From a virus, in IMG/VR virus record IMGVR_UViG_3300028837_000933, positions 32,001-96,000 of that record: DNA of 64,000 nucleotides, one strand, 5' to 3'. This document shows positions 47,380 to 61,710 of the stretch, one piece after another (position 1 is the first letter of the stretch; every line of letters begins with the position of its first letter). The translations under genes were made by a program, and so were the position numbers. The notes under the pieces are model-generated. The model was not told the origin of the DNA, did no database searches, and worked only from the letters and a program-made list of their open reading frames with translations.

Positions 47380-47754
47380 ATGTTGTTTTTCGTGGATCGT
47401 GATATACTCGCGGAAACGTTCTATGGTGACGAGTTGGACGATTGGGACCACGTACAGTGGAACGTCAAGTATTGGGGAGAGTTGGTTATAATTCCCTACG
47501 CAAGAATAGGTCAAAAACGTCCCGCGTTCGGTGCGTGGACTATCCCGGTTTCCGTTTTGGAGAGTGCGGAAAACGTCACAATCGATTGTATGGAGTTGGA
47601 TACATTTTTGACCTATTCAAACGTGGAAAAACCCGGTTCGGGTTGTATTGTCGCGTTCCGTTCCGATGGAGAGGGAACCGTTTCCGCGGGTATTGTACGT
47701 CAATCCCGATGGAAACCTATACAAGACCCGTTTTGGTTCGACATTTCACCATAG
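47380..47754 (+). CDS. Cassette ORF: hypothetical protein
   Basis: ATG after the repeat SD. Confidence 0.7.
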   Translation: MLFFVDRDILAETFYGDELDDWDHVQWNVKYWGELVIIPYARIGQKRPAFGAWTIPVSVLESAENVTIDCMELDTFLTYSNVEKPGSGCIVAFRSDGEGTVSAGIVRQSRWKPIQDPFWFDISP

Positions 47755-47916
47755 CACGCACCCACAATAGAATAGAACCGAGAGACCCACAATCGGGACG
47801 GTTGGCCTAGGCCAACGGTCCCTTTTGTGGTGAGAGACCCAACCGCGGAACCGTCCTATTGTGGGTCGGTTCGGTCGGGTTTCATCACAAAAAGGGAGAG
47901 TGAGACGGTCCAAAAA

Positions 47917-48062
47917 TGAAACCGGTGCCGGATACGCTATTTTTCCATCGTTCCGCGATTGACGGTCCCAAAAGGAACGGGACCGAACCCGCAACCGTTG
48001 ACGCGGAAAACCCGCATCGGTTGAAACCCGTGCCGGATACGCTATTTTTCCATCGTTCCGCG
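47917..48062 (+). repeat. 41-nt direct repeat pair flanking a 64-nt hairpin-rich spacer
   Basis: 47917-47957 and 48022-48062 differ at one position. Confidence 0.85.
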
Positions 48063-48220
48063 GGTTGACCAACCACCAAGACCCACAATAGAATAGAACC
48101 GAGAGACCCACAATCGGGACGGTTGGCCTAGGCCAACGGTCCCTTTTGTGGTGAGAGACCCAACCCAACCAACCACGATCCACCAACCCAACCGCGGGAA
48201 CCGTTGACGGGTTGACCAAC

Positions 48221-48369
48221 GGGACCCAACCGCACGCGGGACCCTTGACCCTTTTTCCGGTCGGGACCCAACCGCACGCGGGACCCTTGACCCTTTTTCC
48301 GGTCGGGAACCCAACCGCACGCGGGAACCCTTGACCCTTTTTCCGGTCGGGACCCAACCGCACGCGGGG
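48221..48369 (+). repeat. ~42-bp tandem repeat, 3.5 copies
   Basis: Unit GGGACCCAACCGCACGCGGGACCCTTGACCCTTTTTCCGGTC. Confidence 0.9.
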
Positions 48370-48876
48370 AATCCGCGTCAATTCGGTTGAACGCACCCAC
48401 AACACAAAAACGGGTTACACCGTGCAAAAAATCCCGCACATTTCCGGTCAATTGACCCTTTTTTGGTGAGACCAACCAACCAAAAACAACCGGGTTGACC
48501 GATTTTTGGGTCAATCGTTCCGGTTCCTAGGTCAACGGTCCCTTTTTTGGCCAACCTGGTCGGTTTCCAACCACAACCCTTGGAGCTGGTTCCAACCCAT
48601 AGCGCGAGCGTGAGGGACTTACACCTGGTGGAATCGGGCTGGCGTTTGGAGCCGCCAGCCAAAACGGCGCTAGATTCTACACCAACCGCGGAGCGCGTGA
48701 GCGCACATCTGGCGCATCTTTTCCCACGTTTGGAGTCGATAGCACGGGGCGGTCAGCTGGCCACAGCTGGCGGTCCCTTTTCGGGTGAGAGAGTCGGTAG
48801 TCGGCTCAGGCCGCGCTAGGCTGGAATCGGTCCAGCTTTTCTACGCCGACTCACAACCACAGAGAGGGAGAGTGTC

Positions 48877-49086
48877 ATGGCATGCGGAATCCCGCTATAC
48901 GCGAGCGTGGCGCTGGAATATCCCACGTGCCCGCCAACCACAGCCGGGGACGATGGCCGCGGTTTTCCAGCGGCCGGCGAACCTGGTGACTGGCGAATTG
49001 GCGACCCGCTGGACGATGACGAGATCGGTATCCAGATGGGTGAGCCAATCGGGGTCGAGCACCTGGCTGGTATCGTGCTGGCGTAA
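48877..49086 (+). CDS. Cassette ORF: small acidic protein
   Basis: ATG after the repeat SD. Confidence 0.55.
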   Translation: MACGIPLYASVALEYPTCPPTTAGDDGRGFPAAGEPGDWRIGDPLDDDEIGIQMGEPIGVEHLAGIVLA

Positions 49087-49235
49087 CGCAAGCTGAGCAT
49101 CACAACAGAAAACGAGAGACCCGAATTGGGGCGAACCGGGACGGTCCGGTTGGTCCCTTTTCGGGTGAGAGAGCCAACCACCAACCGGGGTCGTCCCGGC
49201 TGGCCTGGTTCTCATCACCACAGAGGGAGGGAACG

Positions 49236-49583
49236 ATGTACAGCTATTGCGATGTGGAAACCTATTGGGTGCCAGTCGAACATGGTCCAACTCTCCAGCC
49301 AATGGCCGGGATGTTCTTGGCGCCGGACGGCTGGAATGCCCGAACGGTCAAAACGCCGCGACCCCATTGGGGCGGTGAGACGCTGCTGGAATGCACCGAT
49401 TGGGACAAGGCAGCCTTCCGCTTGCCAACGCGGCACATCGGCATCGAAGTCGCGATCAACGTGCGCATCACGGGCCACCGCGTCCACGTGTGGGACGGTC
49501 GCCATTGGGTGAGGACACGGATCACGTGGGTCGGGGACTGCGAGCCGGACAGCTATAGCGGCGGCTGGCTTTGCATCCGCTAG
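49236..49583 (+). CDS. Cassette ORF: hypothetical protein
   Basis: ATG after the repeat SD. Confidence 0.7.
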   Translation: MYSYCDVETYWVPVEHGPTLQPMAGMFLAPDGWNARTVKTPRPHWGGETLLECTDWDKAAFRLPTRHIGIEVAINVRITGHRVHVWDGRHWVRTRITWVGDCEPDSYSGGWLCIR

Positions 49584-49707
49584 AACACAACAACCGAATA
49601 CTCGCGAGAGACCCGAATTGGGACGGCGTGGCCTTATTCCACGTGGTCCCTTTTCGGGTGCCGGCGCCCCTGGTTCGGGCGTCGAGTACAGAGAGGGAGG
49701 GCATATC

Positions 49708-49938
49708 ATGGCAGCAGTATCGTACATGGCGCGTTTTCACTCGGGGCGTTTGCTCCGGCTGGTCGGCAAGCTGGTCATGGTCCAGCTGGCATACGGTGTG
49801 GCCGAGGGCACGCTGTCGGTTGACGGCGAGCTGGCCAATTGCGTTTACACCGTGACCGGATCTGGCACGCATCTGGAGTTCCGCGTGGAGAAGGTGCGGG
49901 ACGTGGAGTACAGCGAGCGCCTGGTGGTGCTCGTCTAG
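49708..49938 (+). CDS. Cassette ORF: hypothetical protein
   Basis: ATG after the repeat SD. Confidence 0.7.
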   Translation: MAAVSYMARFHSGRLLRLVGKLVMVQLAYGVAEGTLSVDGELANCVYTVTGSGTHLEFRVEKVRDVEYSERLVVLV

Positions 49939-50060
49939 CACAACAACCGAATACTCGCGAGAGACCCGAATTGGGACGGCGTGGCCTTATTCCACGTGGT
50001 CCCTTTTCGGGTGCCGGCGTCCGATCTGCTGACGCCGAGTACAGAGAGGGAGGGCATATC

Positions 50061-50444
50061 ATGGATAGCTTGGAATTGGGTGCCACGGCGGAGTTGCGCG
50101 TGCTGGTCAGGGGTTACAAGGGCCAGGACGGGCTCGATGTCCGGAAGTTCTACAATGGCAAGCCAACCAAAAAGGGTGCTTTTCTCTGCATCCCTGGACA
50201 GGCGGAGTTCGCCGTCAAGGCGCTTGGCCTGGTCCTGGCTGGCGAGAGCGCGGAAGAGGCGCTTCCCATCGATCGCGCCGCCAAGGGCACAACCAACCTG
50301 GTCGTGCGGCGCTTCGAGTTCAAGGGGATGGATGGTATCAGCATCCGGAAAGAGGGCGAGCGCTGGGGCAAGGGGATCTGGCTCAAGCTGGCTCAGGCCG
50401 AGTGGGCGTTCGGCGCGATGAAAGCCGCTCTGGCTGGCAAGTAG
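50061..50444 (+). CDS. Cassette ORF: tandem PC4/YdbC-like ssDNA-binding protein
   Basis: Two related halves, YKGQDGLDVRKFY..KPTKKG and FKGMDGISIRK..GKGIWL. Confidence 0.65.
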   Translation: MDSLELGATAELRVLVRGYKGQDGLDVRKFYNGKPTKKGAFLCIPGQAEFAVKALGLVLAGESAEEALPIDRAAKGTTNLVVRRFEFKGMDGISIRKEGERWGKGIWLKLAQAEWAFGAMKAALAGK

Positions 50445-50594
50445 CACGCATCACCACAACCGAATAGCGAGAGACCCGAATTGGGGCGAACCGGGATGTT
50501 CCGGTTGGTCCCTTTTCGGGTGAGAGAGCCAGTCACCCAACCGGGGTTGTCCCGGCTGGCCGCTGGGTCTCATCACAGAGAGGGAGGGATTGCA

Positions 50595-51266
50595 ATGGCG
50601 ATGCACAAGACGGACGAGCTGTATCTGGACGCGCTGCCGCCGTTTCCACACAGCGACGAGGAGTTCTACAAGATGGAGACCACGCGGGACGTTCCGACAT
50701 CGGCGCTGTGGTTCGAGCGCTGTGGTGACCATCTGGACGGTCGCAAGCTGGCAATCTGGCCACGCGAGCGGAGCGCGTGGAACGTGGTCCACAACGTCTT
50801 CTGGATGACGTTCTATCCGGACGGCGCTGTGGTCGGCGGCTATGGCACGCGGATCGAGGGCGTGGATACGCCGTACAACTGGCGCAGTCACATCGAGCAC
50901 CTGGCTCGCCGGAACGGCTACAAGGTGACGGAGCCGGGACGGAACCGGACAATCCGGGTGGACTGGCATCCTGGTGACGTGGTGGCCGTGGTGTTCAAGT
51001 ACATCGAGCGCCGCGAGACGCTGGACCAGTCGGAGTTGAACCGGCTGTACGACTACCGCCAGTTCTGGAACCCGCGGAAGGTGCGCAAGCTGTCGCTGTG
51101 GGTGGGCAGCGCGTGCCCTGGACAGCGCCAAGCTGGGCGCATAGCAACACAACAACCGAATACTCACGAGAGACCCGAATCGGGGCGGCTGGGCTTCATT
51201 CCCAGTGGCCCCTTTTCGGGTGCCGGCGCCCCTGGTTCGGGCGCCGAGTACAGAGAGGGAGAGTGA
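50595..51266 (+). CDS. Cassette ORF: hypothetical protein (apparent C-terminal frameshift; native stop probably 51144)
   Basis: ATG after the repeat SD; reads through the next repeat because of a TGGG duplication at 51099-51106. Confidence 0.6.
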   Translation: MAMHKTDELYLDALPPFPHSDEEFYKMETTRDVPTSALWFERCGDHLDGRKLAIWPRERSAWNVVHNVFWMTFYPDGAVVGGYGTRIEGVDTPYNWRSHIEHLARRNGYKVTEPGRNRTIRVDWHPGDVVAVVFKYIERRETLDQSELNRLYDYRQFWNPRKVRKLSLWVGSACPGQRQAGRIATQQPNTHERPESGRLGFIPSGPFSGAGAPGSGAEYREGE

Positions 51267-51623
51267 ATGATGGACGTCGAGACTACGGTTTGTCGGCTCA
51301 AAGCAACGCTGGTATCCAGCGAGGGTGAGAATCTCAGCGTCAAGGCTCGCGGTGACGGAACGCTGTCGGTGACAGAGCTTGACACCAACAACGCGTTCAC
51401 CACAACGCGGACGCTGGTCGGCGTGATCGTCTACGCGGCGGGCCGGAGCGTGATACACCGGGCTTCCGCGCTGGACACGCTCCGCGGACTGCGTGGCGAC
51501 AAGGCGGTCAAGCTGGTGGACGATGGCGAGGGCGCGTTGATTGGCTGGGAGTGCTCCGGCTGTCCCCATGGTGAGCACTGGCACGATGTGAGCGTGGTGC
51601 CAGCCGACATCACAACCGAATAG
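51267..51623 (+). CDS. Cassette ORF: hypothetical protein
   Basis: ATG after the repeat SD; CxxC near the C-terminus. Confidence 0.65.
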   Translation: MMDVETTVCRLKATLVSSEGENLSVKARGDGTLSVTELDTNNAFTTTRTLVGVIVYAAGRSVIHRASALDTLRGLRGDKAVKLVDDGEGALIGWECSGCPHGEHWHDVSVVPADITTE

Positions 51624-51725
51624 CGAGAGACCCGAAACGGGGCGGTTGGCCGATGGTGGCCGCGGTCCCTTTTCGGGTGCCGGCGCCTGGGGCTTAGGCG
51701 CTGGACAACAGAGAGGGAGGGTATC

Positions 51726-52106
51726 ATGCCGCACGGAATCAGTGGACTGTGTTTCGAGTTGGAAGTTGGCATATTCCGGCGAGCGTTGCTGGCCAACGTG
51801 TCGCGGAGCGTGTCGATCCTGGCTACGCACATCGGCAAGGCGCCAGTGATAATCCGGGACCTGGACTACAATCCGGGGATCGTGACGGAGCGCCGGATCG
51901 AGCGCAGCCAGATCGTGCTGTCGGTTGGTCGCATGGCTCTGGACAGCAGCAAGCTGCTGGGGTTCCTGGCCGGGATGGCCAACAGCGCACGCGTCCAGGT
52001 GGCCTACAACGCGGACAGCGAGCCGTGCATCACCGGGCTGTGCTGGGGCCAAAAGCGATGGCACACAATAGCCGACCTGGAGCCGTTCCAGTCGCCCGCC
52101 AGCTAG
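51726..52106 (+). CDS. Cassette ORF: single sliding-clamp-like domain
   Basis: FELEVGIFRRAL...GRMALDSSKLLGFL...VQVAYNADSEP resembles a DnaN domain pattern. Confidence 0.4.
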   Translation: MPHGISGLCFELEVGIFRRALLANVSRSVSILATHIGKAPVIIRDLDYNPGIVTERRIERSQIVLSVGRMALDSSKLLGFLAGMANSARVQVAYNADSEPCITGLCWGQKRWHTIADLEPFQSPAS

Positions 52107-52228
52107 ACTGGCGCACAACCGAATAGCGAGAGACCCGAATGGGGGCGAGCCGGGACGGTCCGGTTGGTCCCTTTTCGGGTGCCAGCGGCTTAGGGTTAGC
52201 CGTTGAGTACAGAGAGGGAGGGAGTAAC

Positions 52229-52552
52229 GTGAATCTCAGCATGGATACGGTATTGGACATCTGCAAGCGGTATGGCAAGCTGGGTTCGGCTGGTCAGGAC
52301 GTGCTGGAGTCGGCGTTGAACCGGGACCTGGGGTACGAGAACACAACGCCGTCCTTGGTGGAAGAGGCGCGGTCGTTCCTGGAGCTTCTGGCTGTCGAGT
52401 TCCCAGCTGAGGCTGGGGTGGCTTGTGAGGCTGAGTCCACAGCCGAGTACTGCGCCGAGTATCTGGCCAACGAACCGGAAGACGGCGAGGAGTGGGGCGA
52501 GTTGGAATGGACGGAATGGGGATTGGGCTGGAGTGGCGCGAGAGGCGGATAG
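52229..52552 (+). CDS. Cassette ORF: acidic hypothetical protein
   Basis: GTG after the repeat SD; Glu-rich. Confidence 0.65.
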   Translation: MNLSMDTVLDICKRYGKLGSAGQDVLESALNRDLGYENTTPSLVEEARSFLELLAVEFPAEAGVACEAESTAEYCAEYLANEPEDGEEWGELEWTEWGLGWSGARGG

Positions 52553-52697
52553 GACTGTTCATCCCTACCGTTCCCAACGGAATCACAACCGAATAGCGAG
52601 AGACCCGAAACGGGGCGGTTGGCCAACGGTGGCCAGCGGTCCCTTTTCGGGTGCCGGCGTCCGATCTGCTGACGCCGAGTACAGAGAGGGAGAGTGA

Positions 52698-53393
52698 ATG
52701 ATGGAGAGCAAGAGGGAAGTAGTTCACCTGGCCCTGATGGAAACCACGTGGCCGGACGCGCCGCACATCGGGAGGTGGTCGTACACGCTTGGCGACTATG
52801 CCGGGGAGTGCAGCCAGTTGTACCCGACAGCTGACGCGTGCGATGCCGCCCTGGAAGAGCTGATGCCGAAAGCTCGCTGGGACAGGCGGGTTGTCGTCTG
52901 CTGCAAGGTCCACCACGAGAGTGCAGATGTGGACGTGGTGACCGACTACAGCATCGCGGACGGCGAGGTCATCGGCGTACACCGAGTGGAGCCAGGCGGC
53001 TGGCTGCGCAAGGTGCAGCAGCTGCTGGAGTCGGCGGTCAACGCCGACCTGGCCGAAACGGAAGTCCGTCGACAGATGCTGCAAAGCGCCCGGTGGCCAC
53101 GGGCGGCGACCATCGCAAAGTTCTTGTACACCACAGACGGCGAGCAGGCGCTGTGGTTCGCCAACGCCGACCGCACACGGTTCGCGAGCGCCTCGCCGCA
53201 CCACGCGCACAACGTGATGGGGCGGGCCGTCACCACGTGGCACGAGAACGGAGACGTTGACACGCACGTCTGGATGCCCAAACCGTCGCTACAGTTCTGG
53301 GTGACGGGGATGGTGCTGTTCGTCAAGGTCAACTACGATCTCGATCCGGTGAGCCGGGAAGAGGTCATGGCCTGCATCACAGCGCCGGAATAG
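52698..53393 (+). CDS. Cassette ORF: hypothetical protein
   Basis: ATG after the repeat SD. Confidence 0.7.
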   Translation: MMESKREVVHLALMETTWPDAPHIGRWSYTLGDYAGECSQLYPTADACDAALEELMPKARWDRRVVVCCKVHHESADVDVVTDYSIADGEVIGVHRVEPGGWLRKVQQLLESAVNADLAETEVRRQMLQSARWPRAATIAKFLYTTDGEQALWFANADRTRFASASPHHAHNVMGRAVTTWHENGDVDTHVWMPKPSLQFWVTGMVLFVKVNYDLDPVSREEVMACITAPE

Positions 53394-53515
53394 GCGCCAG
53401 TACAACCGAATACAGAGAGACCCGAAACGGGACGGTTGGCCTATGGTGGTCGCGGTCCCTTTTCGGGTGCCAGCGCCAGCGGCTTAGGCGCTGAGTAACA
53501 GAGAGGGAGGGCAGT

Positions 53516-53815
53516 ATGACGGAATACGAGAAGGCGGTCGAGCGCACGGAGCTTGCGATGTTCGAGCTGGGCGTGGACGCGGGGTTCAATGAGCACGCGT
53601 TCTGCATCGGGCGCGATCAGGGCGACACCGAGATCAAGCTGTGGAGCGTCTACACTCCGCTGGCTGGCGGCGGCAAGCGGCGCATCACAACGGTCATGGG
53701 GCGCACGGAGCTTGAGGCTCAGGACAGAGCGTGGGACACGTTGAACCGGCCGGGGCGCGTGGCAATCGCGCTCGAGTGGCGCGACATGGGTTGTCGCGTA
53801 GAACCGAAAGAGTAA
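53516..53815 (+). CDS. Cassette ORF: hypothetical protein
   Basis: ATG after the repeat SD. Confidence 0.7.
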   Translation: MTEYEKAVERTELAMFELGVDAGFNEHAFCIGRDQGDTEIKLWSVYTPLAGGGKRRITTVMGRTELEAQDRAWDTLNRPGRVAIALEWRDMGCRVEPKE

Positions 53816-53917
53816 CACGAGAGATCCGAATCGGGACGGTGGCCAATGGCCGCGGTCCCTTTTCGGGTGCCGGCGCCTGGGGCTTAGGCGCTGGACAACA
53901 GAGAGGGAGGGTGTATC

Positions 53918-54148
53918 ATGGCCGGAAACGGCAAGCCAAGTCTCCGCTATAATCGGGGGCGCCGCGTGCTTCTGGACGCACGCTCAGCGCACTTTCAGCG
54001 GACGGGGCACAAGCGCATCCACGTGGGCTTGAACTACATCGAGTGCGAGGTCTGCAAGGCACACGCGCACCTGGATCGGTTCGCCCGGCAGCTGCTACAG
54101 CATGGCCGAGTGGGGCCGCTGTACCAGATTCAGCCAGCCGAGTTCTAG
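53918..54148 (+). CDS. Cassette ORF: small basic protein with H/CxxC motif
   Basis: ATG after the repeat SD. Confidence 0.65.
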   Translation: MAGNGKPSLRYNRGRRVLLDARSAHFQRTGHKRIHVGLNYIECEVCKAHAHLDRFARQLLQHGRVGPLYQIQPAEF

Positions 54149-54284
54149 CATCGGCGGCGGGACAGTAGCACAGAGAGACCCGAAACGGGGCGGTTGGGGT
54201 GCCGCAGAGTCATGGTCCCAACGGTCCCTTTTCGGGTGCCGGCGCCTGGGGCTTAGGCGCTGGACAACAGAGAGGGAGGGTATC

Positions 54285-54587
54285 ATGCGGAGAGTGTTCA
54301 AGGTCGCGGAGAAGGACGGCGACGAGATCAACGAGAAGGCGCTCCGGCTGGCCGCCAAGGCGCTCCGGCGTGAGCGTGACGGCGGTGCTCTGCTACGTGT
54401 CGGGCGGGACTACGAGCCGATGGAAGTGGAGCGGATCAACGTTGGCACGGAGTGCCGCGGGCTGATGGGGCGCACGCTGTTCCTGGAAGTCGTCGACGGG
54501 CGCAAGCGCGTACACAAGGTAGCCGCCGAGATGGTTCGGGGCGTCTACGTCTACGGCGGGACACGGACGGTCGAGACAGTCGAGTAG
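54285..54587 (+). CDS. Cassette ORF: hypothetical protein
   Basis: ATG after the repeat SD; the TAG overlaps the next repeat. Confidence 0.7.
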   Translation: MRRVFKVAEKDGDEINEKALRLAAKALRRERDGGALLRVGRDYEPMEVERINVGTECRGLMGRTLFLEVVDGRKRVHKVAAEMVRGVYVYGGTRTVETVE

Positions 54588-54673
54588 AGAGATCCGAAAC
54601 GGGACGGTGGCCAGCGGCTGCGGTCCCTTTTCGGGTGCCGGCGCAACACGCGCCGAGTACAGAGAGGGAGGGA

Positions 54674-55087
54674 ATGATGGAGACGCTACACTTTGCTATC
54701 GTGAGAGTCTCGCACAAGACGGACGGCGCTGTGGAGTGGTGTGCTCTGGTCATGGTGGAGCACACGAGCGCATGGGACCGTCCAGCGCGGTTCGAGTGGC
54801 AGGGGATCTATCCCACGCTGGCCAGCCTGGAGCGTGGACTCGCCAAGGTGTACCCTGGCTCAGAGTTGGGCAAGGGCCGTGGCCTAACGTTCATGGTACA
54901 CGTGACGCGCCACGACACCGACACCACCGACCGCATCCAGCGCTATCTGCTACCGCCGCCCGATGGCCGCGAGGTGGAAGTGCCGAGTCATGGCAACGAT
55001 GCCGAGATCACGATCCAGTCCTGGCTGCTGGACGAGGTCGTCCAGCGGAAGGCGCTGGCCTTCGATGCGGCGCGGAACGCGGAGTAG
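54674..55087 (+). CDS. Cassette ORF: hypothetical protein
   Basis: ATG after the repeat SD. Confidence 0.7.
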   Translation: MMETLHFAIVRVSHKTDGAVEWCALVMVEHTSAWDRPARFEWQGIYPTLASLERGLAKVYPGSELGKGRGLTFMVHVTRHDTDTTDRIQRYLLPPPDGREVEVPSHGNDAEITIQSWLLDEVVQRKALAFDAARNAE

Positions 55088-55187
55088 AGAGAGACCCGAA
55101 ACGGGACGGTTGCCACCGGCAGCGGTCCCTTTTCGGGTGCCAGCGCCAGCGGCTTAGGCGCTGAGTGACAGAGAGGGAGGGAGTATC

Positions 55188-55409
55188 ATGGCTGAGGAGT
55201 TGAAACGGGCGGAGCGGGTGTTGCGGACGAAGCTGGCTCGAATGTACAGAGTCTACGGTGAGGCTGTCATCCGGAAGGTCGCGGCCGTGGAGTTCTTGGG
55301 CGTGGTGGACGGGTTCTACCAGTTCCAAGTGGAGTTCGAGCGAGAGTTGCTTCCCCAGTTCTACGAGGTGCGCTTGTACGCCAAGAGCGCCAGGGTGTAC
55401 AGCGCCTAG
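55188..55409 (+). CDS. Cassette ORF: hypothetical protein
   Basis: ATG after the repeat SD. Confidence 0.7.
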   Translation: MAEELKRAERVLRTKLARMYRVYGEAVIRKVAAVEFLGVVDGFYQFQVEFERELLPQFYEVRLYAKSARVYSA

Positions 55410-55501
55410 AGAGACCCGAGATGGGACGGTGGCCAATGGCCGCGGTCCCTTTTCGGGTGCCGGCGCACTGCGCCGAGTACATCACAGAGAGGGAGGGTAT
55501 C

Positions 55502-56269
55502 ATGGGTAGACGCGAGATGCTCAAGAGGGACGCGGGCGTCCGGTTCCTGTATCTGGTCTCCGAGAAGATTCTGGAGACCTACGAGATCAAGCACTGGCCA
55601 AGCGTCATGCGGAACCGCAAGACCAGTCTACACCGACGCCGGAACGGGACGAGCCAGCTGCTGTTCAGCTGGTCCAACGTCCAGCGGCAGTGGTACTGCG
55701 GAGCCAGGGAGTACAAGACGGTGGCCAGGGCAATGCGCGAGGTCAACGAGCGCTCAGAGCCTGGCTGGCACGCACTCCGGCAGGTCCTGCTCCACGAGTG
55801 CGCCCACGCGCTTCAGTATGAGGTGCCGAACGGGCGGACGCGGGGCAGCATCCACAACGAAGTGTTCATGGCCGAGTACCGTGCTCTGCTGGAACGCTAC
55901 GATCTGGATCGGTGCCTGACGATGGCTGGTCTCACGCTGGACAGCAAGCCGCCGTGGGAAGAGCCGAAAGTGGAAGAGCCAACCACCGCACAGACATCGT
56001 TCATCGCACCCAAACCGCAGACAGAACTGCTCATCGGACGGATCAAGATCAAGGAAAAGGCGCAGTTCTGGTCAGCGAGACAGCAAAAGGACGGCAAGAT
56101 CAACCTGTCGTTCGGCCGCAAGTACTACGCTAAGATGACGTCGACGGAGCGCCAGCTGCTGCTCGAGTACTGCATGGCCACGATGCGGAAGTCGCTATTC
56201 CGCGTGCCGATCCCGCCCGACCTCCGCGGCCAGTACCTGGCGCTGAGGCTGCGAGTGGGCGGCTGGTAG
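55502..56269 (+). CDS. Cassette ORF: SprT-like zinc metalloprotease
   Basis: VLLHECAHALQ...HNEVF (HExxH plus a downstream H). Confidence 0.7.
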   Translation: MGRREMLKRDAGVRFLYLVSEKILETYEIKHWPSVMRNRKTSLHRRRNGTSQLLFSWSNVQRQWYCGAREYKTVARAMREVNERSEPGWHALRQVLLHECAHALQYEVPNGRTRGSIHNEVFMAEYRALLERYDLDRCLTMAGLTLDSKPPWEEPKVEEPTTAQTSFIAPKPQTELLIGRIKIKEKAQFWSARQQKDGKINLSFGRKYYAKMTSTERQLLLEYCMATMRKSLFRVPIPPDLRGQYLALRLRVGGW

Positions 56270-56369
56270 AGAGACCCGAGATGGGACGATGGCCCGGCCT
56301 GGGCTGTGGTCCCTTTTCGGGTGCCAGCGCCAGCGGCTTAGGCGCTGAGTAACAGAGAGGGAGGGCAAT

Positions 56370-56678
56370 ATGGAAACGGCGGACTTGGGGTATGGAACCG
56401 TGCTGGCGCTCAAGCCAACGGGACGGCACGCGGACGTGTTCCAGCAAGTCATCTTGATCAGCGATGGCAGCGCTGTGTTCCCGCGAGGCGAGGAGACGCG
56501 GTTCTTCGGTCTTTTCGTAGACGACTACGAGCAGCCAACGAAGTATGGGTTGGCCAACGTGTACGTCCCGGAAGAGGCGGAAGAGCGTGTCGGTCAAGTC
56601 GAGGAAACGCAGGTGCCGATCATGGTCGTTGATGCCGGCTTTGGCTGGCCTGGACGACTCACACCGAAGGAGGGCTGA
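56370..56678 (+). CDS. Cassette ORF: hypothetical protein
   Basis: ATG after the repeat SD. Confidence 0.7.
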   Translation: METADLGYGTVLALKPTGRHADVFQQVILISDGSAVFPRGEETRFFGLFVDDYEQPTKYGLANVYVPEEAEERVGQVEETQVPIMVVDAGFGWPGRLTPKEG

Positions 56679-56679
56679 G

Positions 56680-56841
56680 ATGGCATTCGATCCGAGATAC
56701 AGACCGCGCCCCGAGAACTGGGGCAAGCTGCACACCGCGCTCAAAGCTGGCGATGAGGCCAAGGCTGAGCGCATCCTCCGCACAATCGAGGCCGAAACCG
56801 AGCTGATGATACGCGAGGCAGAGGCGTACAAGGGCGACTAG
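56680..56841 (+). CDS. Second ORF in cassette (53 aa)
   Basis: AAGGAGG SD; ends at the next repeat. Confidence 0.6.
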   Translation: MAFDPRYRPRPENWGKLHTALKAGDEAKAERILRTIEAETELMIREAEAYKGD

Positions 56842-56930
56842 AGAGATCCGAAACGGGACGGTGGCCAGTGGCCGCGGTCCCTTTTCGGGTGCCGGCGCAA
56901 CACGCGCCGAGTACAGAGAGGGAGGGAGAT

Positions 56931-57341
56931 ATGGTTTTCCATGTGAAGCAGTACGTCTTGATGCGGCTGCTGTCGAATTGCCGCGTCAGGGCGCCGTGGA
57001 TGGACACGATCCGTCTGCACGCCATGCACCCGCAAGACCTACATCTGGTGAGGCTGGATCTGTTCGTGGAGGACGCGGGCGGCAACGTGGATGGTATCGG
57101 CATGATGCACACTATCGAAGAGTGCTACGACACCGTACACGTTGACAGTCCTGGCGCTGTCCTGGTCAGCTTGCACGAGCTGGGCAACGTGGTTCGTCAC
57201 CACGCACCCGACCAGTACGTGACACTGGCGCTGTACGAGAAGGGCGAAGAGCGCGTCATGGTGAGCATCGGCAATGGCCATCCGAAGTATGTGGCCCGCA
57301 TCGATGCGAGCACGCTCCGCACCTTGCCAGATGCGGAGTAG
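56931..57341 (+). CDS. Cassette ORF: single sliding-clamp (DnaN domain I)-like protein
   Basis: MVFHVKQYVLMRLL...PGAVLVSLHELGNVVRH. Confidence 0.5.
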   Translation: MVFHVKQYVLMRLLSNCRVRAPWMDTIRLHAMHPQDLHLVRLDLFVEDAGGNVDGIGMMHTIEECYDTVHVDSPGAVLVSLHELGNVVRHHAPDQYVTLALYEKGEERVMVSIGNGHPKYVARIDASTLRTLPDAE

Positions 57342-57444
57342 TAGGAGAGACCCGAAACGGGACGGTTGCCACCGGCAGCGGTCCCTTTTCGGGTGCCAGC
57401 GCCAGCGGCTTAGGCGCTGAGTAACAGAGAGGGAGGGAACAGTC

Positions 57445-58089
57445 ATGGAGATGAAGTGGAGTCACGAGATGTCCAAGCTGACGCTGGTCATCGAGACGGA
57501 ACAGGGCGCCATCACAGATCCCGATGAAGTGCTACGCGCCGCCGAGGTCATCTTGATGACGGCGGTCAGCCATCTGGAGCCGGACACGGCGCCCGAGATC
57601 GTGCAGCGCGTGATCGATCACGTCACCACCACCAACGATGCCATCGAGAGCGGCGACTGGAGTGGCGAGGCTGGACCAGACGAGTGCGACACGTGCTACA
57701 ATCTGCTGGACAGCCACGATGGGTGTGTGTTCTGCGACCAGGACGAACCCGATCCGCCGCCACGCGAGTACCGCAAGGTCAAGCAAGGCGACACGGTGCG
57801 GTTCGCCCACAAGCTGGGCTACGAGGTGACGGCTGTGGTGGTCGGCAAGCGGTTCTACGCACACGCAGCGGACGCGTCCAGCATCACCGTGTACAGCGCT
57901 GACCACGGCACGCTGTACGGTCTCTCGCTGGGCGCTTACGAGATTCTCGCACAGCCGGACGATGCGACCCGCGAGAAGAAGTTCGTGGAGGCGGACGAGA
58001 ACTACAAGGCGCATCTGAAACAGTACGGGATCTGGGCGGCCAGATTCGAGCAGGAGCCCGACTACCGATTCTTCGAGTGGGAGGGCTAG
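57445..58089 (+). CDS. Cassette ORF: hypothetical protein with CxxC..CxxC zinc ribbon
   Basis: CDTC...CVFC. Confidence 0.7.
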   Translation: MEMKWSHEMSKLTLVIETEQGAITDPDEVLRAAEVILMTAVSHLEPDTAPEIVQRVIDHVTTTNDAIESGDWSGEAGPDECDTCYNLLDSHDGCVFCDQDEPDPPPREYRKVKQGDTVRFAHKLGYEVTAVVVGKRFYAHAADASSITVYSADHGTLYGLSLGAYEILAQPDDATREKKFVEADENYKAHLKQYGIWAARFEQEPDYRFFEWEG

Positions 58090-58188
58090 ACGAGAGACCC
58101 GAGATGGGACGGTTGCCACCGGCAGCGGTCCCTTTTCGGGTGCCAGCGTCCGATCTGCTGACGCTGAGTAACAGAGAGGGAGGGTATC

Positions 58189-58734
58189 ATGGGTAAGAGG
58201 TATCGAACGATCAACCTGGGCTGGGGCGCGGGTGAGCGCCGCTACGTCCGCCATGCGCTGGAGTCGACCGAGACCGGAATGCTCCGGCACCAGTTCAAGG
58301 TGTCAGACGAGGAGTGGGCCGCCAAGGTGAGCCCGACACCCGCCAGCGTGCGCCGCTTGCTTCGCGTGCTGGTCAAGAACGGCTGGAGCATCTGCGCCGA
58401 GGGAATGCTCAAGCCGGAAGTCGCCAAGGGCCGCGTGTGCGGCAACAACGCGCCCCGCTACGTCCACGTTGACTACAACGACTACGATGGCCGCGAGCAG
58501 CTGGTGCCGCCGCGCTGCTACAGCCGGACACCACCGCCCTGCGTCCACGAGGGCGTCCACGTTGACCAGCCCCGCGCCGTGACGGAGTTCGAGAACGTCA
58601 CCCAGGCATCCGTGGGCCGCATCCTGGAGCTTCTGGACGAGGACGATGTGACAGTCTGGGCGGCTGTGGAGCCGTCCGTCACTCGCGTCCAGTTCCTTGG
58701 CTACGTGCCAACGGGCGAGGAAGAGGACGCTTAG
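58189..58734 (+). CDS. Cassette ORF: hypothetical protein with internal duplication
   Basis: KVSPTPASVRRLL and NVTQASVGRIL; a similar ITDASVKRL occurs in 46786..47223. Confidence 0.7.
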   Translation: MGKRYRTINLGWGAGERRYVRHALESTETGMLRHQFKVSDEEWAAKVSPTPASVRRLLRVLVKNGWSICAEGMLKPEVAKGRVCGNNAPRYVHVDYNDYDGREQLVPPRCYSRTPPPCVHEGVHVDQPRAVTEFENVTQASVGRILELLDEDDVTVWAAVEPSVTRVQFLGYVPTGEEEDA

Positions 58735-58821
58735 AGAGACCCGAAACGGGACGGTCAGCCTAGCTGGCGGTCCCTTTTCGGGTGCCGGCGCAACGCGCCG
58801 AGTACAGAGAGGGAGGGAGAT

Positions 58822-59199
58822 ATGCTGTTCACAGTGAGACAGAACTACCTGTTCCGTATGCTGGCGGATGCCCGCCGTACCGTGCCGTTCCTGGAGCGGG
58901 TCACGCTCAGCGCGGAGTACGTTGGCAACGGACGGGCAAAGCTGACGATGACGTTTCTCGATGACGAGATGAGCTTGTCGCACAAGTTCTCGACTGAATG
59001 CACCGTGCGCATCGAAGTGGAGGGTGCGTGCAGCGCGGACGTATCGGAGCTTGCCGACTTTGTCGGCCAGTGCAAGCCGACTGAGCACATCGATGTCAGC
59101 TTGCTAGGCAGCGATGCCGGCGACCGCCAGGTGTTGGTGTCCTCTGGCGGCTACGGGAACGCGATCAAAGGCGAGCGCGTCATGCTGATGCGTGACTGA
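58822..59199 (+). CDS. Cassette ORF: single sliding-clamp (DnaN domain I)-like protein
   Basis: MLFTVRQNYL...PFLERVTL...LTMTFLDDEMSL...EGACSADVSELADFV...VLVSSG. Confidence 0.6.
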   Translation: MLFTVRQNYLFRMLADARRTVPFLERVTLSAEYVGNGRAKLTMTFLDDEMSLSHKFSTECTVRIEVEGACSADVSELADFVGQCKPTEHIDVSLLGSDAGDRQVLVSSGGYGNAIKGERVMLMRD

Positions 59200-59296
59200 G
59201 AGATCCGAAAACGGGACGGTTGGCCTAGGCCAGCGGTCCCTTTTCGGGTGCCGGCGCCCCTGGTTCACGCGCCGAGTACAGAGAGGGAGGTGTGTG

Positions 59297-59635
59297 ATGA
59301 TGAAAGTACGTGTTCGCCAGAAAGCGCTGGTCGCTGCTCTTGCAGACGCGGCCAGTTCGAGCCACGTCCAGCTGGAGGCCACGCGTCCGCATCAGCTGGC
59401 CGTGACGGGGCCGGAGGGTGACGTGAGGTACATCGGGCGATGCTTCTACGAGTGTTTCACGGAGCGTGTCGGTTCCGTCACCGTCTCCGCCAACAAGTTG
59501 CTGGCCGTGCTCGATGAGTGGATGCGGTGGGACTACGTGACTCTGCTCGCATCGCCAGTGCTGGGCGGTTGGATGCTCGTGAGCAACGAGCAGACCAACG
59601 AGGCCAAGGCCATCAAGCTGGCCAGCTACAGCTAG
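59297..59635 (+). CDS. Cassette ORF: single sliding-clamp-like protein
   Basis: MKVRVRQKALVAAL...GSVTVSANKLLAVL. Confidence 0.55.
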   Translation: MMKVRVRQKALVAALADAASSSHVQLEATRPHQLAVTGPEGDVRYIGRCFYECFTERVGSVTVSANKLLAVLDEWMRWDYVTLLASPVLGGWMLVSNEQTNEAKAIKLASYS

Positions 59636-59744
59636 GAGAGATCCGGAATCGGGCGTGTCAGTTCAACGTTAGACTGATAGGCCCGTTTTCGGGTGCCAGC
59701 GCCCGCTACCACGGGCGTTGAGTATCACAGAGAGGGAGGGTACG

Positions 59745-59948
59745 ATGGAAGGGCATGAGCATGACGACACGGACCTGTGCGCCTGTGGCGCGGATCTGCT
59801 CGAGGCCATCACCAATGGCTACGCGCACTACGCCTACACCGAGGGCACGTTCACGATCGAATGCTACGAGTGCGGCCTGGAGATCGAGGTCGAGGCCGAG
59901 GCGCACGTCACGTTCAAGGTGACGGTTCCGAAGGAGAGTGCGACATGA
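59745..59948 (+). CDS. Cassette ORF: acidic zinc-ribbon protein
   Basis: CACG...CYECG. Confidence 0.7.
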   Translation: MEGHEHDDTDLCACGADLLEAITNGYAHYAYTEGTFTIECYECGLEIEVEAEAHVTFKVTVPKESAT

Positions 59949-60307
59949 GAGAGTTTCTCAAGAGAGAGGTGAGGGGTGAGCGCCCCGCCGAGGCGCCCGA
60001 TGGCTGGATCGTCTACAACGCGCCGCGTCCCATCTGGGGCCACACGAAGTGGCAAGGCGACTTTGTGACTGGCGTGTTCTACGCGGCTGTAGATCCCGAG
60101 ATGGACGATGCGGACGAGATGGTCGCCCACAACCAGCTACAGCACGCGGCCGAGCTGACGTTCATCAGCGAAGAGGAATGGCGCCGGCGCGTCGAAGAGT
60201 ACGGTCGAAAGATGTCGGCGGAGTACGAGATCAACCTGGACGACTTCGAGTGGGCCGACATAGAGGCCAGCTACGCCAACTGGCTCCGGCAGGAGCACGA
60301 AACGTGA
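59945..60307 (+). CDS. Second ORF in cassette: acidic hypothetical protein
   Basis: ATGA overlap and AAGGAG SD. Confidence 0.65.
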   Translation: MREFLKREVRGERPAEAPDGWIVYNAPRPIWGHTKWQGDFVTGVFYAAVDPEMDDADEMVAHNQLQHAAELTFISEEEWRRRVEEYGRKMSAEYEINLDDFEWADIEASYANWLRQEHET

Positions 60308-60384
60308 GAGATCCGAACCGGGACGGCTACCCTGTCAAGGGGTGGCGGTCCCTTTTCGGGTGCCGGCGCAAGACGAGTCGCCGC

Positions 60385-60412
60385 TTGCCGTTCTGCACGT
60401 TTTGTGTATAAT
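60385..60412 (+). promoter_or_regulatory. Sigma70-like promoter embedded in the last repeat copy
   Basis: TTGCCG-16-TATAAT. Confidence 0.55.
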
Positions 60413-60461
60413 GGACACGGTTGGCGCGGAGCGCCGAGTAATCACAGAGGGAGGGAGAAAC

Positions 60462-60659
60462 ATGACAAGTCGCAAGTGGAGTGGAGTCGGAAAGCTAGTG
60501 CTGTACGCACTGGTCATCGCGGCCGCGGTAGCACTGTCGGTCGCGGTGGAGGGTGCCGAACGCACGGTCTCGCTGGTCGTGTTCGCCGCCATGCTCAGGA
60601 CGCTTCTGCTCTTATACAGAGAGAGCGCAAAATGGGCGGAGGCGTGCGTCTATGACTAG
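60462..60659 (+). CDS. Small two-TM membrane protein
   Basis: ATG after the repeat SD; two hydrophobic segments. Confidence 0.6.
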   Translation: MTSRKWSGVGKLVLYALVIAAAVALSVAVEGAERTVSLVVFAAMLRTLLLLYRESAKWAEACVYD

Positions 60660-61262: not shown

Positions 61263-61295
61263 AAGGCCAGGGCATCCGCCCTGGCCTTTTGTTTT
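61263..61295 (+). terminator. Intrinsic terminator ending the cassette region
   Basis: AAGGCCAGGGC-ATCC-GCCCTGGCCTT followed by TTGTTTT. Confidence 0.85.
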
Positions 61296-61710
61296 GCCCG
61301 CGCTCGCTCTGGCCGGTCTTTACGGTTTCCGTCGCGCGTCTGCGCGTTTTTTTGCCCGAGAGGGGGAGGGCGAGCGCCGCCGCCGAGGCCGCACACCTGA
61401 CGCGCAAGCGTGGTGTTTGGAGTCGCTCAGAGCTATTGCGGAGGCATGATATTGCCGCGCCCATACACCTAGGCGAATGTGCTGGTGTTTGGAGTCGACC
61501 GAGTGTTATGCTGTCACGCTTACCGCGAGCGCCGTTTGTAGGCGTGCCTGTTACCGATGTCTGTCACAAAACGCGATCGCCGTAAGAGCCTATGCCGTTC
61601 CCAAAGGAGTGGCACTGAACTCGCCCCGAGATGTGCCCTGACATAGTGACAATCGTTTACTCGATTCATGCGTTAGATAGGGTACAATCCTTGTTCGATG
61701 GAGGGAGCCT

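Follow-up and report, generated by a model that had tools for sequence, protein, structure and literature searches.

The 64,000-nt stretch analysed here (the window) belongs to the 121,820-bp genome of an uncultured phage (~122 kb, 87% complete) with a long tape-measure gene. Its early gene block, ~16 kb with ~30 small genes, is an array of repeat units. With up to three mismatches allowed, the core GGTCCCTTTTCGGGTG gives 30 matches on the + strand, at 45450-60362 of the window, and none on that strand in the rest of the genome; the 5′ arms of copies 17, 21, 25 and 27, read in reverse, account for the four − strand matches. A covariance model of the first hairpin (P1) recovers exactly the same 30 copies (E ≤ 1.6e-7) and no additional + strand copy in the window. 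All 30 are intergenic and on the coding strand. The first-pass annotation had set the array at 48745-60461, a range that spans copies 8-30 only and omits copies 1-7 (45396-48153), which its own text uses. No relative was found in which conservation between lineages could be seen, and the sequence turned up in no RNA run.

The order within a unit is stop codon, GAGAGA, P1, UG, a second hairpin (P2), AGUA-CAGAGAGGGAGGG, 3-9 nt and AUG (Table 1). The ribosome-binding site is a very strong Shine-Dalgarno sequence, GGGAGG, and the 14-mer ACAGAGAGGGAGGG, which stands between P2 and the start codon, occurs 17 times, against 0 expected. The unit heads the gene downstream of it, since the first copy follows a promoter-like TATAAT (45367-45372, ~25 nt upstream) with no + strand gene before it, and no copy trails the last genes.

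Table 1. Repeat units and associated elements of the array, in window coordinates
Feature	Position	Strand	Description
Whole array	45396..60470	+	30 repeat units with small genes after (27 clear start codons)
c01	45396..45543	+	P1 45396-45465 (5′ outer arm shortened, long apical insert), type-A second hairpin, SD, ATG 45541
c02	45686..45818	+	P1 45686-45740, type A, ATG 45816
c03	46230..46340	+	P1 46230-46284, type A; window version without clear start codon; X1 and X2 contigs variant here
c04	46656..46788	+	P1 46656-46710, ATG 46786; G.G mismatch closed
c05	47250..47382	+	P1 47250-47304, type A, ATG 47380
c06	47778..47918	+	P1 47778-47832, type A, possible ATG 47916 (50-aa ORF)
c07	48099..48153	+	P1 only; then 42-44-nt tandem repeats (48196-48368), no gene
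c08	48731..48879	+	P1 48731-48787 (no 5′ outer arm), long type-A′ second hairpin, ATG 48877
c09	49112..49238	+	P1 49112-49167, type-A′ second hairpin, ATG 49236
c10	49604..49710	+	P1 49604-49660, P2 type B, ATG 49708
c11	49957..50063	+	P1 49957-50013 (= c10 P1), P2 differs, ATG 50061
c12	50467..50597	+	P1 50467-50522, type-A′ second hairpin, ATG 50595
c13	51166..51269	+	P1 51166-51222 (middle stem GGGGC/GCCCC, fully compensated), P2, ATG 51267
c14	51623..51728	+	P1 51623-51679, P2 base G.U, ATG 51726
c15	52126..52231	+	P1 52126-52181, P2 (A-U base), GTG 52229
c16	52596..52700	+	P1 52596-52653, P2 = c11 P2, ATG 52698
c17	53413..53518	+	P1 53413-53469, P2 (A-U base), ATG 53516
c18	53817..53920	+	P1 53817-53869, P2 = that of c14 and c19, ATG 53918
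c19	54171..54287	+	P1 54171-54238 (extended apical stem), P2, ATG 54285
c20	54585..54679	+	P1 54585-54637 (apical stem with two wobble pairs), short P2, ATG 54677
c21	55087..55190	+	P1 55087-55139, P2, ATG 55188
c22	55407..55504	+	P1 55407-55459 (apical stem = c18), short P2, ATG 55502
c23	56267..56372	+	P1 56267-56323, P2, ATG 56370
c24	56839..56933	+	P1 56839-56891, P2 = c20 P2, ATG 56931
c25	57343..57447	+	P1 57343-57395, P2, ATG 57445
c26	58090..58191	+	P1 58090-58142 (apical stem = c21, c25), P2 loop = c11, c16, A-U base not G-C, ATG 58189
c27	58732..58824	+	P1 58732-58784, short P2, ATG 58822
c28	59196..59299	+	P1 59196-59250, P2, ATG 59297
c29	59634..59747	+	P1 59634-59695 (middle stem CGGGC/GCCCG, two double changes), P2, ATG 59745
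c30	60304..60464	+	P1 60304-60362; insertion with TTGCCG-N16-TATAAT (60385-60412) splits P2; ATG 60462
Sigma-70-like promoter matches	45652-45681 (c02), 46196-46225 (c03), 47745-47773 (c06), 48065-48094 (c07)	+	End in TAGAAT, 7 nt 5′ of GAGAGA
Two canonical intrinsic terminators	61263..61355	+	Array end: GGCCAGGGC-ATCC-GCCCTGGCC TTTTGTTTT; CGCGCG..CGCGCG TTTTTTT

The P1 helix spans about two turns, is interrupted, and has conserved C.U and G.G mismatches; each arm measures 19-22 nt in 28 of the 30 copies. Over its 18 pairs 94.4% of cells pair, compared with at most 65.7% when the 3′ partner is slid by 1-3 columns, and 8 pairs carry double-sided changes; realignment with the covariance model gives 94.9% and 10 pairs. 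Copies 2-7 have CCACAA/TTGTGG as their outer stem and copies 9-30 have (C/T)CCGAA/TTCGGG; read from the GGGAC/GTCCC anchors, two pairs thus differ on both sides, one C-G to G-C and the other A-U to C-G. The stem is reduced to CACAA/TTGTG in copy 1, and copy 8 lacks the 5′ outer arm. The middle stem reads GGGAC/GUCCC in 21 copies, GGGGC/GUCCC with a G.U pair in seven, GGGGC/GCCCC in copy 13 and CGGGC/GCCCG in copy 29 (start 59634-59636). Apical stems come in 22 distinct sequences among the 30 copies, all of which fold.

P2 covaries as well. In the alignment of 19 of the 20 type-B copies (copy 30 was excluded for its long insertion), 85.6% of cells pair, against at most 39.2% when slid, with double-sided change at 3 of 8 pairs; at one pair GC is found seven times, AU five times and GU once. 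The base pair of the stem is G-C, G.U or A-U among copies, and more double changes lie inside it. None of 500 column shuffles reaches the covariation score of P1, nor that of P2, although all copies are paralogues from one metagenome-assembled genome, some identical and some mosaic, so that single cells cannot be counted as independent events, nor the shuffle result taken as a probability.

There are 43 G.U cells, spread over 10 pair positions, against 2 A.C cells at 1 position, which identifies the sense strand as the selected one. Stability also favours the + strand, in 29 of 30 copies for P1 by itself, and for P1 with 40 further nucleotides in 26 of 30 under RNA parameters and 29 of 30 under DNA parameters. 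Both hairpins are thus clearly maintained as RNA structure by compensatory change on the sense strand. All the patterns that the first-pass annotation had read from the letters stand: a two-hairpin structure under selection with G-U tolerance on the plus strand, the switch of the outer stem, the altered inner stem of the copy at 59636, the alternation of P2 through G-U intermediates, and apical loops that vary while staying self-complementary. It had proposed a covariation test on the 30 copies, which returned compensatory changes in both hairpins, and had named better minus-strand folding as evidence against an RNA role; the plus strand folds better.

Minimum-energy folds of full units keep P1 and P2 side by side in 27 of 30 cases, with GGGAGG mostly unpaired; in c01, c03 and c08 the tract after GUCCC pairs instead with the purine run before the Shine-Dalgarno sequence. 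Four whole units gave z-scores of −2.7 to −4.8. The 3′ arm of P1 is near-invariant (16 nt identical in 21 of 30 copies) and the 5′ arm drifts by wobble-preserving transitions. Since helix shape alone cannot explain this near-invariance, it points to an added, sequence-specific role of the 3′ arm, as a protein site, as the U-tract or as a pairing partner of the ribosome-binding site.

Only upstream of copies 1-7 and within c30 are there promoter-like sites; copies 8-29 show none. Several of copies 2-7 stand just downstream of sigma-70-like promoters, an arrangement that the earlier reading had overlooked.

Our best explanation, held at a little under even confidence, is that the repeat is a cis-acting structured RNA module for intercistronic mRNA punctuation, comparable to the early RNase III sites of phage T7 (R0.3, R0.5, R1, R1.1 and R1.3). 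Host RNA polymerase would start at the sigma-70-like promoters in the first 3 kb and pass the promoterless units 8-29 up to the two canonical terminators at 61.3 kb, yielding a long transcript that would be punctuated at every unit. There, a double-strand-specific endonuclease may cut P1, either host RNase III or one like it; the presence of RNase III in the host is assumed, and the phage genome itself has no gene for it. The cut P1 would remain on the upstream message as a protective 3′ hairpin, and P2 would form the 5′ hairpin of the downstream message, insulating its ribosome-binding site from any upstream gene. As a side effect, crossing over at the invariant core, which lies between variable halves, would reshuffle genes and hairpin halves, in line with the mosaic units described below.

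According to a review (PMC3867540), the idealised RNase III substrate has 22 bp and cellular helices ~20 bp or less, and loops or mismatches lead to single-strand cuts that leave stabilising 3′ hairpins; in size and interrupted shape, P1 resembles these substrates. The same review cites five such signals in the T7 early polycistronic precursor (PMC3867540): these hairpins, too, span about two helical turns with internal loops or mismatches in between, stand before each gene, with one in the leader behind the promoters, and once cut remain as a stabilising 3′ hairpin on the message upstream. In its placement P1 also parallels the T7 early operon, down to a copy within the leader that follows the first promoter. 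In contrast to the five T7 sites, the array has 30, whose units also comprise a further hairpin and a fixed ribosome-binding site of exceptional strength; its P1 holds a U-tract within the 3′ arm and a near-invariant 16-nt core, and its cleavage is only predicted here.

The inner part of P1 with its UUUU has the shape of an intrinsic terminator, another feature overlooked before, and we consider it unlikely, though the first alternative to weigh, that P1 is a leaky terminator or attenuator stopping some polymerases at each gene boundary. Array expression would then be graded or factor-controlled (antiterminated), with P2 and the strong ribosome-binding site serving translation only. As in Rho-independent terminators with an A-tract, complementary A residues, a GC-rich hairpin and U residues follow one another, the U-tract sits in the invariant 3′ arm, and a simple consensus scan lists most copies as terminator-like. 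However, the four U are paired to the 5′ arm and followed by CGGG, whereas the operon-end terminators of this phage have perfect 6-13-bp stems and 8-9-nt U-rich tails; none of that canonical kind was seen inside the array. Copies of P1 lie within the operon and directly after promoters: in c01 and copies 2, 3, 6 and 7, a hairpin just past the promoter-like site would stop the transcript before its gene. Because 22 promoterless units follow in succession (48.7-60.3 kb), the distal genes would be almost shut off if each unit terminated even a modest share of transcripts. Finally, covariation keeps the outer stem, P2 and the constant arms of 19-22 nt, with their conserved mismatches, none of which a terminator needs.

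The PeSL (promoter-early stem-loop) elements of T4-type phages speak for termination, as their stem-loops are effective terminators in reporter assays (PMC2839356). Like the array units, they are conserved composite intergenic cassettes, ~100 bp long, in which a stem-loop is combined with a Shine-Dalgarno sequence on the 3′ side, and they flank ORFan early genes in one region, with recombination footprints between cassettes (PMC2839356, PMC4122927). Their order is stem-loop, AT-rich tract and sigma-70 promoter (PMC2839356), whereas in the array promoter-like sites occur at only some of the first seven units, upstream of the hairpin, and units 8-29 have none. PeSL stem-loops are G/C-run terminators, unlike the two strongly covarying hairpins here; phage type and sequences are unrelated.

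We find it rather improbable that the unit works as a switch of translation or that an RNA-binding regulator attaches to it. The invariant 3′ arm (UCCCUUUU) would have two possible partners: the 5′ arm, which leaves the ribosome-binding site open, and AGAGAGGGA within that site, which closes it. A 3′ arm freed by a cut, a protein or an upstream ribosome would then turn the gene off. When the 5′ arm is removed, the minimum-energy fold indeed pairs the core with the ribosome-binding region in all 27 gene-linked copies, through an 8-pair helix pairable in 97.9% of cells; type-A copies have a longer version, present in the full-unit minimum-energy folds of c01 and c03. The near-invariant 3′ arm and the purine run 5′ of GGGAGG, conserved beyond ribosome-binding needs, are in line with this. 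But no covariation is seen in the alternative helix, where 0 pairs have changed on both sides and all shuffles equal the observed value, and it still pairs at 87% when slid by 1-2 columns, as any pyrimidine and purine runs do. The only changes in the core, in copies 13 and 29, are compensated in the 5′ arm of P1 and not on the ribosome-binding side, and in full units P1 (−27 to −36 kcal/mol) far outweighs an 8-pair helix with four G.U pairs.

Very improbable, in our view, is a primary function at the DNA level, as attC- or PeSL-like cassette recombination sites, or as hairpin/cruciform protein sites or a phage-specific promoter. The array does look integron-like: ~30 small same-strand ORFan genes, bounded by imperfect inverted repeats whose core is invariant and whose centre varies. 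The two halves of a unit, left and right, assort independently: c10 and c11 share P1 and not P2, c11 and c16 share P2 and not P1, and c26 joins the P1 of c21/c25 to the P2 loop of c11/c16. Contig joints run across units, from 45544 to 46356 (runs X1 and X2) and from 45546 to 47904 (X1 only), but these may be assembly paths. PeSL cassettes mediate such shuffling (PMC2839356, PMC4122927), and the phage has a gene for a sigma-like protein (region 4, E 7e-7). Against this stands the wobble bias of the sense strand; the minus strand does not fold better, which weakens an attC-like role, and no tyrosine recombinase or integrase was found in the 87% complete genome. Sites of the attC type have extrahelical bases and a GTTRRRY-type core and favour the bottom strand, whereas the repeat, as read from its sequence, has neither feature, favours the sense strand and includes the ribosome-binding site of the next gene; an attC-like role is disfavoured. 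The spacing of the conserved blocks varies by 15-40 nt and more, which a fixed-geometry promoter or dimeric operator would not tolerate. Any repeat of 50-100 nt can give shuffling as a by-product.

Least probable is a role in processive antitermination, as played by the put RNA elements of phage HK022, two neighbouring hairpins that, transcribed right after the promoter, make polymerase terminator-resistant: the two hairpins 2 nt apart, and the position of copy 1 and several of copies 2-7 directly 3′ of promoter-like sites and ahead of a long promoterless array, recall them, but one or two copies per operon would be enough, yet 30 are kept, there are no canonical terminators inside the array to override, and the repeat has no sequence or Rfam match to known RNA families.

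Beyond these readings, the array resembles the SAS and extended SAS elements of Cluster K mycobacteriophages, which, according to PMC3203893, are short asymmetric motifs (GGGATAGGAGCCC, 11-19 copies over the right arm) at the translation starts of a subset of non-structural genes, in one orientation. About half of them have, just upstream, imperfect 17-bp inverted repeats with variable spacers of 4-13 bp (PMC3203893). The array differs in having a hairpin in every unit, arms that enclose a further stem, a second hairpin, and demonstrated covariation and wobble bias. As a minor point, the G.G mismatch of P1 is closed in c04 alone (C at 46695), and this may be an assembly variant, since a contig of run X1 reads G at that position.

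The repeat forms one array of 30 copies. With up to three mismatches allowed, the core GGTCCCTTTTCGGGTG gave 30 matches in the whole genome, all on the + strand and all at window 45450-60362; four matches on the - strand are the 5' arms of four copies in reverse reading. A covariance model of P1, the first hairpin of the unit, recovers the same 30 copies and none further. The range given in the first-pass annotation, 48745-60461, therefore holds for copies 8-30 but leaves out copies 1-7 at 45396-48153. All units share one order: an upstream stop codon, 0-25 nt, GAGAGA, P1, UG, the second hairpin P2, AGUA-CAGAGAGGGAGGG, 3-9 nt and a start codon. The 14-mer ACAGAGAGGGAGGG, for which 0 occurrences are expected, is found 17 times. 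The units are without exception intergenic; each points the same way as its gene and is continuous with the ribosome-binding site of that gene. A plausible start and a small ORF (37-255 aa) follow in 27 of them.

Two RNA hairpins are under structural selection in this array. P1 is built in three tiers: an outer stem of 6-7 pairs and a C.U mismatch or 2x2 loop, a middle stem of 5 pairs (GGGAC/GUCCC) followed by a G.G mismatch, and an apical stem, 6-8 pairs long and free in sequence, with a loop of 3-8 nt. Its arms measure 19-22 nt in 28 of the 30 copies, and its folding energy lies between -27 and -36 kcal/mol. When the 30 copies are aligned with MAFFT (26 distinct rows), pairing holds in 94.4% of the 466 P1 cells; the cells are not independent, since they come from paralogous copies, some of them identical. 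Pairing falls to 40-66% when the 3' partner is slid by 1-3 columns, and RNAalifold independently returns the same helix. The covariation on which the first-pass annotation had staked its claim of structural selection is present: 8 of 18 pairs carry double-sided changes, and none of 500 shuffles reached the P1 score. After realignment to the model, which biases the alignment towards structure, the figures become 94.9% paired and 10 double-change pairs.

The individual substitutions described earlier are also found. The outer stem is CCACAA/UUGUGG in copies 2-7 and CCCGAA/UUCGGG in later ones; in copies 1-7 the outer 5' arm is shifted by one column in the MAFFT alignment, which makes most of them count as unpaired there, and the former pairing is taken from individual folds rather than from the alignment. 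One middle-stem pair is A-U in 21 copies, G.U in seven and G-C in two, the copy at 59636 (copy 29) has the altered stem CGGGC/GCCCG, and the 30 copies carry 22 different apical stems. P2 is a longer, different hairpin in copies 1-9 and 12 (type A in copies 1-7, type A' in 8, 9 and 12). Among the remaining, type-B units, it has 8 pairs in 19 of 20, copy 30 being left out of the P2 analysis for its insertion, and 85.6% of its cells pair versus at most 39% when slid. Double-sided changes affect three of its pairs, and its reported alternation through G-U intermediates is seen at one pair as GC in seven, AU in five and GU in one of 13 distinct rows. Against dinucleotide shuffles, four whole units score z = -2.7 to -4.8. 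Almost every full-length fold leaves the ribosome-binding site open.

Wobble bias and folding stability both point to the sense strand as the selected one. The two helices together contain 43 G.U cells and 2 A.C cells, again not independent between copies, as expected from the plus-strand G-U tolerance noted at first; the wobbles fall at 10 pair positions, the A.C cells at one loop-closing position. P1 alone is more stable on the + strand in 29 of 30 copies, and for P1 plus 40 nt the count is 26 of 30 under RNA and 29 of 30 under DNA parameters. The better minus-strand folding that had been linked to an attC-like DNA element is thus not what these copies display. Because the units are intergenic, co-oriented and joined to ribosome-binding sites, action at the RNA level is much the simplest explanation.

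Copies 2, 3, 6 and 7 are preceded by sigma-70-like matches (TTGACC or near, N17-18, TAGAAT), each ending 7 nt ahead of GAGAGA. Copy 1 follows a TATAAT at a distance of about 25 nt and has no + strand gene upstream, and in unit 30 a TTGCCG-N16-TATAAT is inserted within P2. Units 8-29 gave no convincing sigma-70-like promoter match, the single hit, at 53892, overlapping a start codon. From this lack of promoters and from the two terminators that close the array at 61263-61355, we infer a single long transcript. A primary transcript from the promoter-like sites would begin at or near GAGAGA, with P1 as its 5' hairpin.

We tentatively propose that the element punctuates one long early transcript between cistrons, at every unit, with P1 as a candidate RNase III-type site, a reading that falls a little short of being probable. 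The downstream message would carry P2 as its 5' hairpin, insulating its ribosome-binding site. In the excerpts of PMC3867540 at hand, RNase III substrates are coaxial hairpins of about 20-22 bp with an internal loop or mismatches, single-strand cleavage of such interrupted helices leaves stabilising 3' hairpins, and the T7 early precursor carries five such signals. P1 has this shape, with arms of matching length and conserved C.U (or 2x2 loop) and G.G mismatches. Its position between genes and in the putative leader of the predicted long transcript parallels the T7-type placement, one copy standing before the first gene in both. By this analogy, the T7 early RNase III signals would be its closest functional counterparts. 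No RNase III domain was found in the phage genome.

The main rival, in which P1 is a leaky terminator, appears unlikely. P1 does share the hairpin-plus-U shape, and stem-loops of PeSL cassettes have terminator activity, as reported in the portion of PMC2839356 consulted. Intrinsic terminators, however, place a GC-rich stem-loop immediately before a U-rich tail of about 7-9 nt, and those of the phage itself have perfect GC-rich stems with tails of 8-9 nt (TTTTGTTTT, TTTTTTGTT or TTTTCTTTT). The P1 inner hairpin is followed by only UUUU (UUUUCGGG) and then CGGG, and this short U-tract is paired with the 5' arm. Placement at the end of a transcription unit is not seen either: the 30 copies lie inside one same-strand block, several of them just downstream of promoter-like sites, and 22 promoterless units follow one another in series.

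The 3' arm of P1 is nearly invariant, whereas the 5' arm drifts; this is poorly explained by any reading and suggests a sequence-specific partner. A more elaborate and rather doubtful scheme makes the array a platform of 'insulated cassettes', served by a dedicated hairpin-specific endoribonuclease. The enzyme would be either an ORFan early product of the phage or a host nuclease distinct from RNase III. Its target would be the invariant 16-nt 3' arm within the P1 helix, and its cuts would divide a transcript about 16 kb long into some 30 monocistronic messages, all of them P2-capped and P1-tailed. The invariant core would also serve as a crossover point, early genes being swapped like integron cassettes without an integrase.

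That the core acts as a switch, pairing alternatively with the ribosome-binding region, is improbable. Once the 5' arm is taken away, computed folds do pair it with AGAGAGGGA in 27 of 27 units. The resulting helix, however, lacks covariation and is hardly specific in register, and where the core has changed, in copies 13 and 29, the compensation lies only in P1.

We regard a primary role at the DNA level as quite improbable, although single-stranded DNA of the sense strand would be compatible with the strand numbers. Integron attC sites need the integron integrase, a tyrosine recombinase, and their active form is the folded bottom strand. Here the sense strand folds better, and the 87%-complete genome gave no match to the tyrosine recombinase family PF00589 at E <= 0.01, with a control positive in 14 of 14 genomes; the attC-like role raised at first is weakened. 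Put-like antitermination seems very unlikely, and a split promoter for a phage polymerase is disfavoured by the variable spacing.

The element belongs to none of the PeSL, SAS and attC classes, from which it departs in promoter order, in motif sequence, and in integrase and strand, respectively; it is probably no intrinsic terminator either, judged by its placement and perhaps by its tail. As far as the consulted part of PMC2839356 describes it, the PeSL cassette runs from stem-loop through an AT-rich tract and a sigma-70 early promoter to the SD; in our array the promoter-like sites lie upstream of the hairpin, and only at copy 1 and four of copies 2-7. The SAS/ESAS motifs of Cluster K mycobacteriophages, which the element recalls, are given in excerpts from PMC3203893 as a 13-bp motif GGGATAGGAGCCC at translation starts, of unknown function; the motif here is the 14-mer already described.

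Rfam 15, self-cleaving ribozymes included, returned no match at gathering score in the window, and at E <= 10 over 53380-57460 only six chance-level matches, none recurring on the + strand at each unit. The segment 48000-61000 had no megablast match among 50,697 phage records; in the same records, tblastn with TerL reached at most 27.6% identity among the matches listed, all under 60%, and TerL peptide patterns had no match in viral_contigs. The exact 16-mer core occurs at seven loci in viral_contigs, each a single match, and in at least 118 stretches in metagenome_contigs, with single matches in all 80 among the matches listed; an 18-mer gave seven single matches in genome_contigs, no more than chance. 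With no relative in the collections searched, the element is known from this one metagenome-assembled genome alone; such searches need near-exact cores and would have missed diverged relatives. Open-access text yielded no described equivalent. We conclude that this is a well-supported novel structured RNA motif, absent from Rfam and unusual in copy number and composite design.

P1 and P2 variants assort independently. Copies 10 and 11 have a common P1 and different P2, copies 11 and 16 a common P2 and different P1, and copies 18 and 22 a common apical stem and different P2; copy 26 combines the P1 of copies 21 and 25 with the P2 loop of copies 11 and 16, one base pair changing from G-C to A-U. 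This pattern resembles PeSL-mediated shuffling as outlined in the available parts of PMC2839356 and PMC4122927, and by analogy the element appears to evolve most like PeSL cassettes. The reshuffling is probably a by-product of the repeats. The sequence is present in four DNA runs of one marine-sediment metagenome study, whose contigs differ from the window by three base differences, 1-nt and 29-nt indels and two joints across units, with breaks at repeats; they contain no compensatory polymorphism. No RNA run was among those listed for the sequence. One joint (45544 to 46356) appears in contigs of two runs, X1 and X2, the other (45546 to 47904) in one X1 contig, and both may be real variants or assembly paths. 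Separately, GAGAGA(C/G)CC stands directly before and directly after P1 in type-A and A' units (copies 2-7, 9 and 12), which looks like a short direct repeat around the P1 inverted repeat and may be a relic of P1 insertion or duplication.

If the punctuation reading is true, the array shows, on an unusual scale, a virus bringing numerous unrelated small early genes under one standard of expression: a single RNA module would provide the ends and the stability of the messages together with a ribosome-binding site independent of context. Artificial versions of this design exist in synthetic biology, where ribozymes or Csy4 act as insulators. The 30 copies and their 22 apical stems are a ready mutational series for what a processing enzyme or terminator reads in the helix, and an invariant core flanked by halves that reassort freely makes the array a test case for phage shuffling of host-takeover genes. 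The status of a new structured RNA motif holds whatever the mechanism.

The source of the array is a tailed phage, represented in IMG/VR by a single 121,820-bp contig classed as linear, with an estimated completeness of 87%; the window spans bases 32001-96000 of this contig. A simple ORF map, with gene starts assigned by simple rules, shows - strand structural genes reaching about 41.3 kb of the window and a + strand block from about 45.4 kb to the contig end, continuing from the contig start. Other products include a DnaB helicase, ParB-like proteins, a C5 methylase, an amidase and a 220-aa sigma-70-like protein. The gene of the latter lies about 10 kb downstream of the array and is followed by a canonical terminator; the protein probably serves the phage as a sigma factor of its own for the later genes.

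Features of the phage genome and of the repeat array (window coordinates unless marked genome)
Feature	Position	Strand	Remarks
Tape-measure protein	2834-7996	-	
Large terminase	36097-37932	-	
Head-morphogenesis protein		-	
Protease-containing 924-aa protein		-	
AACCG-rich non-coding zone	42480-44800		about 2.3 kb
Zone of copies 1-7	44801-48560		GC 52%
GAGAGA(C/G)CC pair around P1	45686-45750		
Four tandem units after copy 7	48196-48368		42-44 nt each
PC4-like single-strand DNA-binding domain	50061-50444		weak family match, E 1.8e-7
ORF reading through copy 13	50595-51266		
SprT-like metalloprotease motif	55502-56269		E 2.7e-4, below cut-off
Putative paralogue, first	56931-57341		136 aa
Putative paralogue, second	58822-59199		125 aa
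Putative paralogue, third	59297-59635		112 aa
Array-closing terminator, first	61263-61300		
Array-closing terminator, second	61333-61355		
Sigma-70-like protein	genome 103573-104235 (L134:7573-8235), outside window		region 4 E 7.3e-7; region 2 weak, E 0.004
Canonical terminator	genome 104252		

Among 10 array ORFs scanned, Pfam returned the PC4-like and the weak SprT-like match only. The 255-aa SprT-like protein has a single homologue among 5.8 billion proteins searched, 35% identical and on a 3.3-kb contig. Three further small array proteins look like paralogues; the first two were among the 10 scanned and matched no Pfam family, and the N-termini of all three resemble the first domain of bacterial sliding clamps. 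The ORF before copy 13 has no in-frame stop ahead of the repeat, and an X2 contig holds 29 extra bases behind 51101; assembly or population therefore varies here, and the true end of the gene is uncertain. The tandem units after copy 7 contain CTTGACCC and stand in place of the expected gene.

The tetramer TTAA is wholly missing from the genome (0 versus 223.5 expected from base composition) and is the most depleted of all 256, which looks like avoidance of a TTAA-specific restriction system. The non-coding zone that separates the two divergent gene blocks consists of short purine-rich words ending in AACCG, such as GTGAGAAACCG and GTGTGAAACCG. AACCG occurs there 66 times (28 per kb versus 0.7 per kb elsewhere), most commonly spaced by 10 nt and frequently by multiples of 10, and the zone may serve as an origin, in packaging or protein coating, or as phased bent DNA. 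In the adjoining zone of copies 1-7, the dinucleotides AG, CT and GC are strongly depleted (observed/expected 0.42-0.49, versus about 1.0 elsewhere), and AGCT, GCGC and CATG are counted once, never and once. The type-A variants, with AAAAAGGGAGAG replacing AGAGAGGGAGGG and the other second hairpin, may be part of this recoding.
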